Source: Escherichia coli (GTDB lineage Bacteria > Pseudomonadota > Gammaproteobacteria > Enterobacterales > Enterobacteriaceae). From it: a DNA stretch of 64,000 nt. Made by a program: the position numbers and the translations under genes. Position 1 is the first letter of the stretch, and each line of letters starts with the position of its first letter. Of the stretch, positions 2,324 through 49,034 are shown in pieces. The notes beneath the pieces are model-generated. The model saw only the letters and a list, made by a program, of their open reading frames with translations. It did no database searches and was not told where the DNA came from. The stretch lies in NCBI RefSeq assembly GCF_041248615.1, contig NZ_CP158426.1; one strand, written 5' to 3'.

Positions 2324-3562
2324 ATGGCTGACACTCGCCCTGAACGTCGCTTTACGCGCATTGATCGTCTCCCGCCCTACGTTTTTAATATTACCGCTGA
2401 ACTGAAAATGGCTGCGCGTCGGCGCGGCGAAGATATTATCGATTTCAGTATGGGTAACCCGGACGGTGCGACTCCGCCGCACATCGTCGAAAAATTATGT
2501 ACTGTGGCCCAGCGCCCGGACACGCATGGTTACTCCACGTCACGCGGCATTCCGCGGCTACGTCGCGCCATTTCCCGCTGGTATCAGGATCGCTACGACG
2601 TTGAAATCGACCCGGAATCAGAAGCCATCGTCACTATTGGTTCGAAAGAGGGACTGGCGCATCTGATGCTGGCGACGCTGGATCATGGTGACACGGTGCT
2701 GGTGCCTAATCCAAGCTACCCCATTCATATTTATGGCGCGGTGATTGCAGGGGCGCAGGTACGCTCAGTGCCGCTGGTGGAAGGTGTCGATTTCTTCAAC
2801 GAACTGGAACGCGCCATTCGCGAAAGTTATCCGAAACCGAAGATGATGATCCTCGGCTTCCCGTCGAACCCAACCGCGCAATGCGTGGAACTGGAATTCT
2901 TTGAGAAGGTTGTGGCGCTGGCAAAACGCTACGATGTGCTGGTGGTCCATGACCTGGCCTATGCCGATATCGTCTACGATGGCTGGAAAGCGCCGTCAAT
3001 CATGCAGGTGCCGGGCGCACGCGACGTGGCGGTCGAGTTCTTTACCCTGTCGAAAAGTTACAACATGGCGGGCTGGCGTATCGGCTTTATGGTTGGCAAC
3101 AAAACGCTGGTCAGCGCGTTGGCACGTATTAAAAGCTATCACGATTACGGCACCTTTACGCCGTTGCAGGTGGCAGCGATTGCGGCGCTGGAGGGCGATC
3201 AACAGTGCGTGCGCGACATTGCTGAACAGTACAAACGCCGCCGTGATGTACTGGTAAAAGGGCTGCATGAAGCGGGCTGGATGGTCGAAATGCCGAAGGC
3301 TTCGATGTATGTCTGGGCGAAAATCCCGGAACCGTATGCTGCCATGGGCTCGCTGGAATTTGCCAAGAAGCTGCTGAACGAAGCGAAGGTCTGTGTCTCT
3401 CCGGGGATTGGCTTTGGCGACTACGGCGACACGCATGTTCGCTTTGCACTGATTGAAAACCGCGACCGTATTCGTCAGGCGATTCGTGGAATTAAAGCGA
3501 TGTTCCGTGCCGACAGTTTACTACCCGCCAGCAGCAAACATATTCACGAAAACGCGGAATAA
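2324..3562 (+). CDS. alaC: glutamate-pyruvate aminotransferase AlaC (412 aa)
   Basis: 412-aa [24 protein letters not shown] with class I aminotransferase fold; GAGG Shine-Dalgarno upstream of the ATG. Confidence 0.95.
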
Positions 3563-3581
3563 ACACCATCGCCAGAAATGC

Positions 3582-3610
3582 AAACAGGAGCCAGATGGCT
3601 CCTGTTTTTC
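3582..3610. terminator. intrinsic terminator after alaC, plausibly bidirectional (also downstream of ypdK)
   Basis: Stem caggagcc/ggctcctg with 4-nt loop followed by TTTTT, 20 bp after the alaC stop. Confidence 0.75.
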
Positions 3611-3626
3611 ATTGCACAGTTTGCTT

Positions 3627-3698
3627 TTAGATCATCAGGGCAAAAGTACCGGCCCAAACGATGACCATAAAAGAAATGCCCATAAAGAAATATTTCAC
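3627..3698 (-). CDS. ypdK: 23-aa hydrophobic small membrane protein
   Basis: Minus-strand GTG at 3696-3698 with GGAGAG 8 nt upstream; translation (M)KYFFMGISFMVIVWAGTFALMI then TAA; matches the K-12 small protein YpdK as I recall it. Confidence 0.7.
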   Translation of the reverse strand: MKYFFMGISFMVIVWAGTFALMI

Positions 3699-4052
3699 TT
3701 TACATCTCTCCGCGTAATTACTGTTACGCCTGAATGACTTCATTACACCTGATACAGTGAGTTGACACCGGGCAAAACGACCTTAAAAGTCCTGTATTTT
3801 ACCGTGGGCATCACCCCAGAATTCTGAGCTAAACTGCTCCAGACGGCGCTAATGTACGCCTAAAACTGAAACGAGACAAGAGGCATTTTCTTATTTACTT
3901 TTAGTAACTTACAGGTGTCTCATATCGGCGACAGTTTAATTTCTGACGGTAATAATTAGAGATTCAGCGAAGGAAAAAACTTAAGAAAAAAGCCATAAAA
4001 ACCATGAGGTTATTATGGCTGATTTGAGGAGGGAAAGAGTAAGAGCAGTTTG

Positions 4053-4973
4053 TTAAATGTATAGCGACGATTCTCCCACCGGGCGCGTTTTAAAGCGACG
4101 GTGGATCCAGAGGTACTGCTCCGGTGCGCGCATGATCTCTTTTTCGATAATCTTGTTCATATAGGCAGCGGCTTGATTTTCATCTGCCGGGTAGCCTTCC
4201 ATCTCTGGGGTGATGTACAAACGATATCCGCTGTAATCCGCTTTTCTTACCATCGTTACGGTTAACATGGCTGCGCCAGAGAGACGTGAAAGGACATACG
4301 TACCATTGGTTGTGGCGACATTTTCCACCGCAAAGAACGGCGCGAAGGAGCTGCCTTTACGACCATAATCCTGATCGGGAGCAAACCATACCGCTTCACC
4401 TTTCTTCAGTGCACCGACAATGCCGCGCAGATTATTTCTGCCGATCATCGCTTTGTTAGAGCGCATGCGCCCACGGGTCTGCACCCATTCCATCAGCTGA
4501 TTATTATGTGGACGATAGGTAGCCATCATTGGTTGGCACAGTCCCATCACGCGGCCGCCCAGTTCCAGCGACATAAAATGGACGCCGACAACCATTACGC
4601 CGCGATTTTGCATTTGTGCGCGTTTAAGGTTATCCAACCCTTCAACATCAAACCATTTACGTACGCGACTGTCGGGCCAGAACCACGCCATGCCGGTTTC
4701 TACCAGCGCCATGCCGAGTGAACGAAAGTTTTCGGCAATCATCTTCTCGCGTTCTTCCGCAGAATGCTGTGGGAAACAAAGTTCCAGGTTTTTACGGGCG
4801 ATAGATTCACGCCGTTTCAGGAATGGTCGCGCCATTGCGCCAATACGCGTGCCGAGAAAGCAGAGAACAGGATAAGGAAGCTGTACCCAAAGCCAGAGTA
4901 CACCAAGCCCAAACCACGTGAGCCAGTAGCGAGGATGCAGAAACTCGCGGGAAAATTTGCATTTTGGAAACAT
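4053..4973 (-). CDS. lpxP: lipid A palmitoleoyl-ACP acyltransferase (cold-induced), 306 aa
   Basis: ORF 4053-5039; product begins MFPKCKFSREFLHPRYWLTWFGLG at the internal ATG (4971-4973), matching the LpxP/LpxL family; the longer upstream start is rejected. Confidence 0.9.
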   Translation of the reverse strand: MFPKCKFSREFLHPRYWLTWFGLGVLWLWVQLPYPVLCFLGTRIGAMARPFLKRRESIARKNLELCFPQHSAEEREKMIAENFRSLGMALVETGMAWFWPDSRVRKWFDVEGLDNLKRAQMQNRGVMVVGVHFMSLELGGRVMGLCQPMMATYRPHNNQLMEWVQTRGRMRSNKAMIGRNNLRGIVGALKKGEAVWFAPDQDYGRKGSSFAPFFAVENVATTNGTYVLSRLSGAAMLTVTMVRKADYSGYRLYITPEMEGYPADENQAAAYMNKIIEKEIMRAPEQYLWIHRRFKTRPVGESSLYI

Positions 4974-5325
4974 AGTTACCTTCTGTAGATACGAATTGTT
5001 GTATCGCAGAAGATTCCATGTCGACAGCGGTACACTCAATTGATTAGGCCATCATGTACGACAATGGTTCCTGTAAAGAGTGTAAAGACTAGTCAGGACA
5101 TAACCACGAGGAGCATGAATGCGGTATCTGTACTTTATCACTCGCTGACTGCTTTCAGCTACTGATTATTAATCGTGCAAAGTAAATATTTTTCCGTACG
5201 CAACAGTCTTGCATTTAACATGCTGTTTTCATTGATGCTTAGCAAAAATTGCCAGAGGTTAAGGATTGTCTTACTATTAAAGTGACTGAAGTTACAGGTT
5301 TTTTAGCGCGGCAGGAGGTTGAGCT

Positions 5326-5568
5326 ATGATTTATTTATGGATGTTTCTCGCCCTGTGTATTGTCTGCGTAAGCGGATACATCGGTCAGGTACTGAACGTG
5401 GTATCGGCGGTCTCTTCTTTCTTCGGCATGGTGATCCTCGCTGCACTCATTTATTACTTCACCATGTGGTTAACTGGCGGTAATGAACTGGTGACGGGGA
5501 TATTTATGTTTCTTGCCCCGGCTTGTGGCTTGATGATTCGCTTTATGGTGGGATATGGCAGGCGGTAG
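5326..5568 (+). CDS. yfdY: 80-aa small membrane protein YfdY
   Basis: 80-aa ORF with two predicted TM helices; GGAGG Shine-Dalgarno (5310-5314) upstream; position between lpxP and ypdI as in K-12. Confidence 0.8.
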   Translation: MIYLWMFLALCIVCVSGYIGQVLNVVSAVSSFFGMVILAALIYYFTMWLTGGNELVTGIFMFLAPACGLMIRFMVGYGRR

Positions 5569-5644
5569 TGGGTCAGGATGGCTCATTTGGGCAGGTGTTC
5601 ACATCAGCATCAGACATGATTGTTCACCTGCCGTGTGACAGACG

Positions 5645-5877
5645 CTATCGCACAGGATGGATAAGATAATTCGCCTTTGTCGGAAAAGGGGGCGGAATTT
5701 CTTCTGTGAGGTTTAATGGTGGCGCATCTTCTCTCATTTTTAACAAAATCGCCTGTGATGGCTGAAATTTTGTAGAGTGAGTTGTCGTCATCGCTGACGT
5801 TTTTTCCGTCTCTTTATAGCTCGTCTCACTTCCACCACCAGAAATGGAAAATGCAAAAACATTGCATGCCATAATAG
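5645..5877 (-). pseudogene. ypdI: ypdI lipoprotein gene remnant, 5' end and promoter removed at the IS1 boundary
   Basis: Minus-strand ORF encodes ...MACNVFAFSISGGGSE... with the candidate lipobox Cys at residue 3 of the remaining frame, so a signal peptide is missing; frame runs directly into the IS1 left end at 5878. Confidence 0.6.
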
Positions 5878-5932
5878 GGTGATGCTGCCAACTTACTGAT
5901 TTAGTGTATGATGGTGTTTTTGAGGTGCTCCA

Positions 5933-6208
5933 GTGGCTTCTGTTTCTATCAGCTGTCCCTCCTGTTCAGCTACTGACGGGGTGGTGCGTAACGGCAAAAG
6001 CACCGCCGGACATCAGCGCTATCTCTGCTCTCACTGCCGTAAAACATGGCAACTGCAGTTCACTTACACCGCTTCTCAACCCGGTACGCACCAGAAAATC
6101 ATTGATATGGCCATGAATGGCGTTGGATGCCGGGCAACCGCCCGCATTATGGGCGTTGGCCTCAACACGATTTTCCGCCATTTAAAAAACTCAGGCCGCA
6201 GTCGGTAA
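5933..6208 (+). CDS. insA: IS1 InsA (91 aa, transposition repressor / N-terminal part of the transposase)
   Basis: [43 protein letters not shown] with zinc-finger cysteines. Confidence 0.97.
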
Positions 6209-6630
6209 CCTCGCGCATACAGCCGGGCAGTGACGTCATCGTCTGCGCGGAAATGGACGAACAGTGGGGATACGTCGGGGCTAAATCGCGCCAGCGCTGG
6301 CTGTTTTACGCGTATGACAGGCTCCGGAAGACGGTTGTTGCGCACGTATTCGGTGAACGCACTATGGCGACGCTGGGGCGTCTTATGAGCCTGCTGTCAC
6401 CCTTTGACGTGGTGATATGGATGACGGATGGCTGGCCGCTGTATGAATCCCGCCTGAAGGGAAAGCTGCACGTAATCAGCAAGCGATATACGCAGCGAAT
6501 TGAGCGGCATAACCTGAATCTGAGGCAGCACCTGGCACGGCTGGGACGGAAGTCGCTGTCGTTCTCAAAATCGGTGGAGCTGCATGACAAAGTCATCGGG
6601 CATTATCTGAACATAAAACACTATCAATAA
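6127..6630 (+). CDS. insB: IS1 InsB frame (transposase C-terminal part; InsAB' is made by -1 frameshift)
   Basis: 167-aa ORF in the -1 frame overlapping the insA 3' end; slippery AAAAAAC at 6184-6190. Confidence 0.95.
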
Positions 6631-35618: not shown

Positions 35619-38270
35619 ATGGATACGCCGATGCCAGAACATTCTTTTCTCCGTTTACGGGGGCTTTCGTGGTGGATTGCTCTGGCAATTTCTGGAAGTC
35701 CATTTAATGCCCTGGCAGACGATACCGTTCAGTTTGATGGCCGATTTCTTGATTTAAAAGGCAATACCAAAATTGATTTGGGCCGTTTTTCGCAAAAAGG
35801 CTATGTTGAACCGGGAAAATATAACTTACGCGTTCATGTAAATAATCAGCCGTTACCTGACGACTACGATATCTACTGGTACGCAACTGAAAACGATCCG
35901 AATAAATCATATGCCTGCTTATCGCCAGAGCTGGTTGCCCAGTTTGGTCTGAAGGAAGATATTGCAAAGAATTTGCAATGGATCCGCGATGGTCAGTGTC
36001 TGAATACGGCACTTTTAGCAGGTACAGAAATTAGCGGCGATTTAGGCCAGTCTGCACTCCTTGTTTCTGTACCGCAGGCTTATCTGGAATATACCGACAG
36101 CGAGTGGGACCCGCCTTCGCGCTGGGATGACGGTATCCCTGGGCTTATTGCCGATTACAGTATCAACGCGCAAACCCGACATGAAAATGGGGGTGATGAC
36201 ACTAACGACATCAGCGGTAATGGTATGGTCGGCGTTAACGTTGGGCCGTGGCGCTTACGAGCTGACTGGCAGAGCGATTATCAGCATACCCGCAGTAACG
36301 ATGACGGCGACACTGACGATAGCGGTACGCAAAAAAACTGGGAGTGGAGTCGTTACTACGCCTGGCGCGCCTTGCCGTCATTAAAAGCCAAACTTTCGCT
36401 GGGCGAAGATTATCTCAACTCCGATATTTTTGATGGCTTCAGTTACATTGGCGGCAGCATCAGTACCGATGATCAAATGTTACCGCCAAACCTGCGCGGC
36501 TACGCCCCCGATATTTCAGGTGTTGCACACACTACCGCTAAAGTGACTGTAACCCAAATGGGCCGTGTCATTTACGAAACCCAGGTACCCGCAGGTCCAT
36601 TCCGCATTCAGGATATTGGCGACTCCGTCTCTGGCACGCTGCATGTCCGCATTGAAGAACAAAACGGCCAGGTACAAGAATACGACGTCAGCACGGCGTC
36701 CATGCCGTTCCTGACTCGCCCCGGCCAGGTGCGTTATAAAGTGACAATGGGGCGTCCACAAAACTGGGACCATCAGGTTGCAGGTAGCTTCTTCTCGGGC
36801 GGCGAGGCGTCGTGGGGGATAGCCAATGGCTGGTCGCTCTACGGCGGTGCGTTAGCCGATGAAAACTACCAGTCGGCGGCGCTGGGCCTCGGTCGTGACC
36901 TGGCGCTGTTAGGCGCGTTAGCGTTTGATGTCACTCACTCTCGTGTTCAACTCGACGATAACAGCGTGTATGGCAACAAAACGCTGGACGGCAACTCTTA
37001 TCGCGTCAGCTATGCCAAAGATTTTGATGAACTCAACAGTCGGGTGACGTTTGCTGGATACCGCTTCTCTGAAAAAAACTACATGACCATGAGCGAGTAT
37101 CTGGATGCGAACGACGACGACCGGGCGCGCACCGGTAACGACAAAGAGATGTATACGGTCACCTATAACCAGAACTTCACGGATGCGCGCGTTTCGGTCT
37201 ATCTCAATTATTCCCACCATACCTACTGGGATCGCCAGGATCAAACCAACTACAACATGATGCTTTCTCATTATTTCAATTTAGGAAGCCTTCGTAACTT
37301 GAGCGTTTCTCTGACTGGTTATCGCTACGAATACGATAAAAGTGCCGACAAGGGTGTTTATCTGTCCTTAAGTTTGCCGTGGGGCGACAACAGCACCATC
37401 AGTTACAACGGCAACTATGGCAGCGGTGCCGACAGCAATCAGGTGAGCCTGTACCACCGCATTGATGACGCCAGCCACTACACGTTAAGCGCCGGAACCA
37501 GCGAAAACCACAGCAGCGTGGATGGCTACTACAGCCACGATGGCACTCTGGCAAAAGTTGATCTCAGTGCTAACTACCATGAAGGGCAATACACCTCAGC
37601 AGGGATCTCTTTACAGGGCGGGGCAACGTTGACCGCTCATGGCGGGGCACTGCATCGTACACAAAATATGGGCGGCACACGTCTGTTAATCGACGCTGAT
37701 GGTGTTGCTAATGTACCGGTTGAAGGTAATGGTTCCGCCGTTTATACCAACATGTTCGGCAAAGCGGTGGTGGCAGATGTGAATGATTACTACCGCAACC
37801 AGGCTTATATCGATTTGAACAAACTGCCGGAAAACGCCGAAGCTACAAAATCAGTGGTTCAGGCAACGCTGACGGAAGGCGCTATTGGCTACCGTAAATT
37901 TGCGGTAATCAGCGGTGAGAAGGCGATGGCAGTGCTGCGCTTGCAGGATGGCAGCCATCCGCCATTTGGGGCGGAAGTAAAAAACGATAATCAACAACAA
38001 GTAGGGTTGGTTGATGACGAAGGTAATGTTTATCTGGCAGGCGTTAAACCGGGTGAACATATGACCGTTTTCTGGGAGGGTGAATCTCACTGCGATATCA
38101 GCCTGCCAGACCCGTTACCGAATGACCTGTTCAATGGCTTGTTGTTGCCATGCCAGCAAAAGGGGGGAAGTTCTCCCGTCATACCGCATGATATTCAACC
38201 CGTCATTCAGGAACAGACACAACAGGTGACACCAATGGAACCGCCGATGTCTGTTTCATCGAACCAATAA
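35619..38270 (+). CDS. yfcU: fimbrial outer-membrane usher, apparently intact (883 aa)
   Basis: Single uninterrupted 883-aa ORF with usher-like N-terminal plug and beta-barrel regions; I recall the K-12 copy being split (yfcT/yfcU). Confidence 0.88.
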   Translation: MDTPMPEHSFLRLRGLSWWIALAISGSPFNALADDTVQFDGRFLDLKGNTKIDLGRFSQKGYVEPGKYNLRVHVNNQPLPDDYDIYWYATENDPNKSYACLSPELVAQFGLKEDIAKNLQWIRDGQCLNTALLAGTEISGDLGQSALLVSVPQAYLEYTDSEWDPPSRWDDGIPGLIADYSINAQTRHENGGDDTNDISGNGMVGVNVGPWRLRADWQSDYQHTRSNDDGDTDDSGTQKNWEWSRYYAWRALPSLKAKLSLGEDYLNSDIFDGFSYIGGSISTDDQMLPPNLRGYAPDISGVAHTTAKVTVTQMGRVIYETQVPAGPFRIQDIGDSVSGTLHVRIEEQNGQVQEYDVSTASMPFLTRPGQVRYKVTMGRPQNWDHQVAGSFFSGGEASWGIANGWSLYGGALADENYQSAALGLGRDLALLGALAFDVTHSRVQLDDNSVYGNKTLDGNSYRVSYAKDFDELNSRVTFAGYRFSEKNYMTMSEYLDANDDDRARTGNDKEMYTVTYNQNFTDARVSVYLNYSHHTYWDRQDQTNYNMMLSHYFNLGSLRNLSVSLTGYRYEYDKSADKGVYLSLSLPWGDNSTISYNGNYGSGADSNQVSLYHRIDDASHYTLSAGTSENHSSVDGYYSHDGTLAKVDLSANYHEGQYTSAGISLQGGATLTAHGGALHRTQNMGGTRLLIDADGVANVPVEGNGSAVYTNMFGKAVVADVNDYYRNQAYIDLNKLPENAEATKSVVQATLTEGAIGYRKFAVISGEKAMAVLRLQDGSHPPFGAEVKNDNQQQVGLVDDEGNVYLAGVKPGEHMTVFWEGESHCDISLPDPLPNDLFNGLLLPCQQKGGSSPVIPHDIQPVIQEQTQQVTPMEPPMSVSSNQ

Positions 38271-48998: not shown

Positions 48999-49034
48999 GG
49001 CTGATCGGACTTGTTCGGCGTACAAGTGTACGCT
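48999..49034. promoter_or_regulatory. fabB promoter operators: FadR site (CTGATCGGACTTGTTCG) next to the FabR palindrome (GCGTACAAGTGTACGCT)
   Basis: GGCTGATCGGACTTGTTCGGCGTACAAGTGTACGCT about 50 bp upstream of the fabB ATG. Confidence 0.7.

Follow-up and report, generated by a model that had tools for sequence, protein, structure and literature searches.

ypdK of Escherichia coli, a known 23-codon membrane protein gene between alaC and lpxP, and the putative module around it

Enterobacteria have several single-helix membrane micro-proteins, such as AcrZ, MgtS, MgrB, PmrR, KdpF and CydX, and among these the membrane peptide PmrR exerts control over an enzyme that modifies lipid A. Genes for type I toxins typically occur in multiple copies and with a patchy distribution. 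Epitope-tagged YpdK protein was reportedly detected by Hemm and co-workers in their 2008 study. The 18 small membrane proteins of Hemm et al. 2008, as listed in PMC3009722, include ypdK (2494943-2495014 in older K-12 coordinates), and the same article describes a tiling-array transcript (2494795-2494997) that overlaps ypdK, begins 148 nt upstream and is differentially expressed after UV. A deep-learning preprint on K. pneumoniae names YpdK solely as an attention feature.

Here we analysed a 64-kb stretch of DNA from a non-K-12 E. coli strain, referred to as the window, in which the initial annotation had pointed to a hydrophobic micro-ORF described as ypdK-like. The ORF proved to be ypdK itself. 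The best explanation overall, to which we assign a probability of about 0.9, is that the known gene ypdK (b4680), a real protein-coding gene, occupies 3627..3698 on the minus strand. The gene is already annotated and is not new; its recovery from raw sequence, despite size cut-offs, serves as a positive control for this kind of reading. What is possibly new, in both cases as a hypothesis, is the anatomy of the ypdK module and a FabR ChIP signal from Salmonella that falls on ypdK.

Identity of the ORF and coding selection

The ORF was found exactly where the initial annotation had placed it, on the minus strand and between the stops of alaC (3562) and lpxP (4053). Its GTG (3698..3696) is followed by 22 further sense codons and by TAA (3629..3627), in agreement with the claimed 23 codons and clean stop, and the minus-strand translation is (V/M)KYFFMGISFMVIVWAGTFALMI*, with the start counted among the 23 codons. 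The ribosome-binding arrangement had been given as GGAGAG-N8-GTG, which was right as to the box and the start codon and wrong as to the spacer, ATGTAAA, which has 7 nt and not 8. The ORF had also rightly been said to fall below the size limit of the six-frame track, since the default cut-off of the ORF listing is 60 aa. When ORFs of at least 20 aa were listed, the same frame appeared as a 38-aa ORF starting from an in-frame ATG at 3743.

Nearly all of YpdK is one hydrophobic helix (F4-I23, 20 uncharged residues), with the N-terminal K2 as the only charge, and this prediction from hydropathy agrees with the single helix that had been proposed. The whole 64-kb window was scanned for a start codon preceded by an SD core and opening an ORF of 16-50 codons with a mean Kyte-Doolittle hydropathy of at least 1.73, which is the mean of YpdK and the top value among the SD-preceded short ORFs of the window. 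ypdK was the sole ORF that passed, and dinucleotide shuffles gave 0.13 such ORFs per window. This sequence-only rarity is suggestive, not decisive, and it is conservation across species that places the ORF far above chance.

The same scan flagged MPFMVVSTEINFCQSAIVAVVAIHAAVVFAGSGA (31-34 codons, mean hydropathy 1.5), with minus-strand start codons at 37580..37589, which may lie within or antisense to a larger gene.

Of 5426 complete E. coli genomes examined by megablast, 5422 contained region 3560-3900, with a median of 1 copy per genome, and it was annotated there as "ypdK: membrane protein YpdK" beside alaC. In a 100%-identical genome (L001), the RefSeq CDS "membrane protein YpdK" (2568..2639) corresponds exactly to 3627..3698 of the window. 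The gene order in MG1655 is lpxP-ypdK-alaC, the translation of b4680 is identical to that of our ORF, and the 406-nt ypdK module showed 99% identity between the window and K-12 MG1655. The peptide matched the NCBIfam equivalog NF033437 "YpdK" with 57.5 bits (E = 9.4e-16, cut-off 30), residues 1-23 aligning to profile positions 1-23 of 23, while the profile search of Pfam gave no family for it. The exact sequence occurs in public protein collections under the name YpdK (262 taxa), and its UniRef name is "Uncharacterized membrane protein YpdK". It has the features that define a Hemm-type protein, namely at most 50 codons, an SD box, conservation in related species and one predicted transmembrane helix.

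YpdK homologues were then sought by peptide in 80 alaC loci of different species (the synteny route), and an intact ypdK was identified in 75 of them, from Enterobacteriaceae, Erwiniaceae and Serratia (three families). All 75 start with GTG and are 23 (55 loci) or 24 codons long (20 loci), with no frameshift or internal stop, and the GGAG box is invariant in a 37-sequence alignment and was seen in almost all of the 75 loci. Residues K2, Y3, M6, G7, S9, W15, G17, T18, F19 and M22 vary hardly or not at all. Variation is mostly at third positions, the column entropy being 0.58, 0.19 and 1.13 at codon positions 1, 2 and 3, respectively, in the 75 loci. Summed pairwise dN/dS was 0.16 in the ypdK frame; the antisense frame with which it has third positions in common gave 0.32. 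The initial annotation had named conservation of the ORF and of its SD as a check, and this check was passed. Its view of the ORF as a credible small membrane protein gene was likewise borne out, by coding selection and by the YpdK family match, with the membrane location predicted from hydropathy.

Two other readings of the same stretch were weighed against the 23-codon gene. One is that the ORF is fortuitous and its peptide irrelevant, the conservation being that of a non-coding element such as an sRNA, 3′ UTR or terminator region; the leader does have conserved RNA structure, a terminator hairpin lies directly 3′ of the ORF, and short hydrophobic ORFs do arise by chance at the shuffled rate given above. 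However, low dN/dS is confined to one frame (the shifted frames give 1.2-2.3), entropy at third positions is sixfold that at second positions, the frame with its GTG and GGAG stays intact at 23-24 codons throughout the 75 species, and Rfam gave no match, so we give this reading almost no credence. The other, to which we allow only a slight chance, is that the true product is a 38-aa protein (MKSFRRNSNYAERCK-VKYFF...) from the ATG at 3743, whose frame is open in the window and in the E. coli representative L003. Yet L003 is the only one of the loci with an in-frame start at that position, 15 codons upstream, and an in-frame stop occurs within 3 codons 5′ of the GTG in 33 of the 75 species. This ATG is preceded just by AGGTG at 2 nt, too near for an SD, and falls within the conserved leader structure; moreover, in the long form the NF033437 model matches no more than residues 17-38, and both RefSeq and EcoGene annotate 23 aa. 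The extended ORF was rejected as its extension is not conserved outside E. coli, and the 23-aa form is taken as the product because of the upstream stops in 33 species and the restriction of the extension ATG to E. coli.

An overlapping ORF in the +2 frame was also considered and rejected, with a dN/dS of 2.15 and a GGAG too near its ATG. This frame is free of stops in all 69 distinct ypdK sequences and is opened by an ATG at −7 in most genera, and its lack of stops is explained by the NTN codons that a hydrophobic peptide uses. In E. coli, an out-of-frame ATG-TAA start-stop (3700..3705, minus strand) lies between the SD and the GTG; at this position most other genera have ATGAAAC, which opens the +2 frame. 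The conserved GATGAA near 3700..3705 may instead serve in pairing with UUCAUU (P4x, Table 1).

The alaC loci with no intact ypdK were L004, which is a contig end, L067, L077, L078 and L081. In L067 (Erwinia endophytica), only a ypdK remnant with an internal stop (...Q*RGVNWVGVFYLML*) was detected 3′ of alaC, and it looks like a pseudogene. No ypdK homologue was found near alaC in L077 (Symbiopectobacterium) or L078 (Lonsdalea), nor in the L081 locus. The L081 contig (NZ_AUIE01000007.1) carries the label Pseudomonas resinovorans DSM 21078, and its AlaC shares 91% identity with that of E. coli, which is unexpected for Pseudomonas and may reflect contamination, mislabelling or transfer.

Putative promoter, predicted leader and boundaries of the module

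Table 1. Features of the ypdK locus, in window coordinates
Feature	Position	Strand	Remarks
Terminator-like hairpin common to convergent ypdK and alaC	3583..3606	both	AACAGGAGCC-loop-GGCTCCTGTT, U-rich tails on each strand; conserved
ypdK CDS	3627..3698	minus	GTG start, 23 codons, TAA stop; product MKYFFMGISFMVIVWAGTFALMI
Predicted ypdK 5′ leader	3699..3844	minus	about 146 nt; from inferred TSS and covariation
P4x, weaker extension (tentative)	3733..3738 with 3701..3706	minus	UUCAUU with GAUGAA across the SD-GTG spacer
Shine-Dalgarno box GGAGAG	3706..3711	minus	7 nt 5′ of the ypdK GTG; GGAG conserved
P4, hairpin abutting the SD	3712..3717 with 3724..3729	minus	double-sided changes
P2, long-range stem	3807..3817 with 3759..3769	minus	encloses variable hairpin P3
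P1, 5′-terminal hairpin	3824..3842	minus	sequence varies by genus
GC-rich discriminator AGCGCC	3845..3850	minus	putative ypdK promoter
−10 box TACATT	3851..3856	minus	putative ypdK promoter
−35 box TTGTCT	3874..3879	minus	putative ypdK promoter; 17-nt spacer to −10
A-tract	3885..3896	minus	part of the putative ypdK promoter (3845..3896)
Conserved upstream block	3897..3971	minus	5′ of the putative ypdK promoter
lpxP intrinsic terminator	about 3985..4020	minus	AGCCAUAA...UUAUGGCU, then U-run; z = -4.5

The block that holds the putative promoter (Table 1) is near-invariant in Enterobacteriaceae, with at most two substitutions in 66 of the 75 loci (three families), in which it lies 72-195 nt, mostly 120-165 nt, 5′ of the ypdK GTG. 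The −10 element (TAnATTAGCGCC) is retained in Pantoea and Serratia. A consensus promoter scan overlooked this promoter because no more than 8 of its 12 positions match. To judge from its boxes, a sigma-70-type promoter would drive ypdK; sigma-32 and sigma-E readings were dropped, as by eye neither the spacing nor the boxes fitted. Transcription probably starts at about 3844, as estimated from the −10 box together with the low-resolution array boundary, and the leader of ~146 nt that this gives matches the 148-nt offset of the tiling-array transcript.

Conservation extends about 115 nt 5′ of the −10 box and ends abruptly (~3971) in all genera, whatever the adjoining gene. The upstream block carries an inverted repeat, TGTCGCC-N-GAGACA (3916..3933), which takes the form GTGTCGCCG...CACGACAC in other genera, and also GTAAGTTACTAAAA. 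A promoter-like site on the plus strand (GCGACA-17-AATAAT, 3928..3956) lies within the same block.

RNAalifold, applied to 37 leaders, recovered P2 and P4 with double-sided changes in 8 of 18 predicted pairs, and folds of individual leaders followed the same plan with P1 in addition. When the P1/P2/P4/P4x structure was tested explicitly, 86% of the cells were paired, compared with 33-49% for slid partners, and the covariation score was 0.273 against at most 0.094 in controls, with 0 of 500 shuffles reaching the observed score. P2 (94.5% paired) and P4 (91.4%) each have 4 pairs that changed on both sides, and P4x, which shows no double-sided changes, is regarded as tentative. A conserved palindrome, CAGAATTCTG, occurs at 3817..3826. 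Taken by itself, the E. coli leader has no unusual stability (z = -1.5). P3 has been lost by a clean deletion from some E. coli and from Pseudocitrobacter, and in L057 and L065, both of which keep the ORF, the leader is only about 60 nt. Searches of the E. coli, Salmonella and Enterobacter loci against Rfam gave no family, and the sub-threshold matches fell on the terminator hairpin.

The covarying stems suggest that the leader acts in cis, on mRNA stability and/or on the initiation of translation. The transcript could in addition have a dual function, with the ~146-nt structured leader serving as a regulatory RNA besides being part of the peptide mRNA; it has about 280 nt, the size of an sRNA, and it combines compensatory changes in its stems with conserved single-stranded blocks such as the palindrome. 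We consider a second function of this kind improbable, as there was neither an Rfam match nor a predicted target, the leader is reduced to about 60 nt in two loci and lacks P3 in others, and a role in cis in mRNA stability or translation accounts for the data more simply. The same leader can also be compared with those of tisB, shoB, dinQ and zorO, and on this analogy ypdK would be a type I toxin-like gene whose structured 5′ UTR silences translation. The 23-aa hydrophobic product, the long leader with pairing around the SD-start spacer, and the listing of the overlapping transcript as UV-induced (value 1.06, PMC3009722) would all be in keeping with a toxin. On the other hand, ypdK is single-copy in 5422 of 5426 E. 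coli genomes and holds a fixed position next to alaC under strong purifying selection in three families, the promoter scan gave no promoter-like site antisense to the ORF, and no LexA box was seen in the sequence by eye; a toxin-like gene is thus very unlikely. We retain the reading of ypdK as a small membrane protein gene whose leader may act in cis.

At its 3′ end, ypdK faces alaC tail-to-tail in 71 of the 75 species, with a gap of about 40-150 nt, and about 730 nt separate the two in Serratia (L074, L079). The hairpin between them folds with -24.3 kcal/mol (z = -5.4) when read on the ypdK strand, and the alaC strand gives -21.5 kcal/mol (z = -3.6). A simple terminator scan reported neither this hairpin nor the lpxP terminator, both of which were revealed by folding and alignments. 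Upstream, the neighbour is lpxP in 17 of the 75 species only, including those of Escherichia, Salmonella, Citrobacter and Enterobacter. In Pantoea stewartii (L059), an emrA/emrB-like efflux pair (4054..6216 of that locus) lies directly 5′ of ypdK on the same strand, and in Phytobacter an EAL-like gene is found upstream. Co-transcription or a dedicated functional link with lpxP was rejected, since lpxP has its own terminator and is upstream in so few species, and as the neighbours other than alaC vary, synteny indicates no partner for YpdK. It is more likely that ypdK behaves as an autonomous module of ~390 nt (about 3578..3971), and not as an appendage of lpxP, made up of the conserved upstream block, the sigma-70-like promoter, the ~146-nt leader, the ORF and the hairpin shared with alaC.

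A FabR signal on ypdK

In S. Typhimurium, a FabR ChIP-chip peak was reported in the ddg/yfdZ (= lpxP/alaC) intergenic region and validated by ChIP-qPCR under three conditions, and it was judged non-regulatory because ddg and yfdZ converge (Hermans et al. 2016, PMC4804515). When the qPCR primers of that study were mapped, one matched the ypdK ORF at 3645..3663 (0 mismatches) and the other fell in the terminator, at 3595..3616. Both have the same places in Salmonella (L020), and the amplicon covers the 3′ half of ypdK and the terminator. PMC4804515 was not among the matches of our full-text literature search on ypdK, and our literature searches gave no report of FabR occupancy at ypdK in E. coli or of ypdK expression in fabR mutants.

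The core of the putative ypdK promoter, GGCGTACATTAGCGCC, resembles FabR operators, which we compared using those of fabB (GGCGTACAAGTGTACGCT), fabA (AGCGTACACGTGTTAGCT) and yqfA (AGCTAACAGGTGTTCACT). Over the −10 box, GGCGTACA (3853..3860) is identical in 8 of 8 positions to the left half-site of the fabB operator. A palindromic PWM was built from the three operators, which score 21-25 bits on it. The site at the −10 box scored 1.7 bits, its left half matching 8/8 and its right half poorly, and a full FabR operator at this place was rejected on that score. The best PWM match in the intergenic region was ACACCTGTAAGTT (3906..3918), with 6.5 bits, weak against 21-25; it fits the FabR core ACAnnTGTnnnnT (ACAnnTGT) proposed in PMC4804515, and the TGT of this core is CGT in many genera. 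Compared with the promoters of the FabR regulon (fabB, fabA and yqfA/trhA), ypdK thus shares a fabB-type half-site and the ACAnnTGTnnnnT core, and has the Salmonella ChIP amplicon on it, but by the PWM no 18-bp palindromic operator (AGCGTACA-NN-TGTTAGCT-like) was found at its promoter. The fabB operator GGCGTACAAGTGTACGCT itself occurs in the same window, at 49017..49034, and fabB with its promoter lies about 45 kb from ypdK.

The ChIP coincidence suggests a possible link of ypdK to FabR and to membrane-lipid control. Perhaps ypdK belongs, so far unrecognised, to the FabR (unsaturated-fatty-acid) regulon and the orphan peak represents FabR at the ypdK promoter, a proposal that we put forward as tentative and with the odds against it. 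A serious alternative is that the signal on ypdK is an artefact of high transcription, which is plausible because other FabR peaks in PMC4804515 are at tRNA and ribosomal-protein promoters and because the putative promoter of ypdK includes an A-tract together with a GC-rich discriminator. If FabR regulation were true, production of the 23-aa membrane peptide would respond to the state of the membrane acyl chains, a further, post-transcriptional control would come from the covarying leader, and this would be the first lead to the function of a micro-protein reported in 2008. Taken together, the anatomy of the module and the FabR signal provide a testable hypothesis for YpdK.

Possible mode of action and comparison with known systems

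We propose that transcription would start at about 3844 at the sigma-70-type promoter, pass through the structured leader and stop at the hairpin that serves both ypdK and alaC. The peptide would then enter the inner membrane with a cytoplasmic N-terminus, as predicted from hydropathy and from the positive-inside rule, K2 being the only charge. By analogy with described micro-proteins, YpdK would most likely pack against a larger inner-membrane protein and modulate it, and the polar or small invariant residues of its helix (Y3, G7, S9, W15, G17 and T18) would fit a specific helix-helix contact.

Compared with the type I toxins (tisB, shoB, dinQ, ibs and zorO), ypdK is alike in having a very short hydrophobic product and a long structured leader, but it is strictly single-copy, syntenic and near-universal, and an antisense promoter-like site was not found. 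The control of a lipid A enzyme by PmrR invites comparison, as ypdK adjoins lpxP in some genera; yet the two are not adjacent in 58 of the 75 species, and a dedicated link to LpxP is therefore not supported by synteny. In its general features, YpdK is like AcrZ, MgtS, MgrB, PmrR, KdpF and CydX: it has fewer than 50 aa and one hydrophobic helix, and its gene is chromosomal, vertically inherited and provided with its own SD. The closest system is YpdK of E. coli K-12, with which the ORF of this non-K-12 strain shares the same 23-aa sequence, the same place relative to alaC and lpxP, the GTG start and the full-length NF033437 match, and from which it differs in no tested feature.
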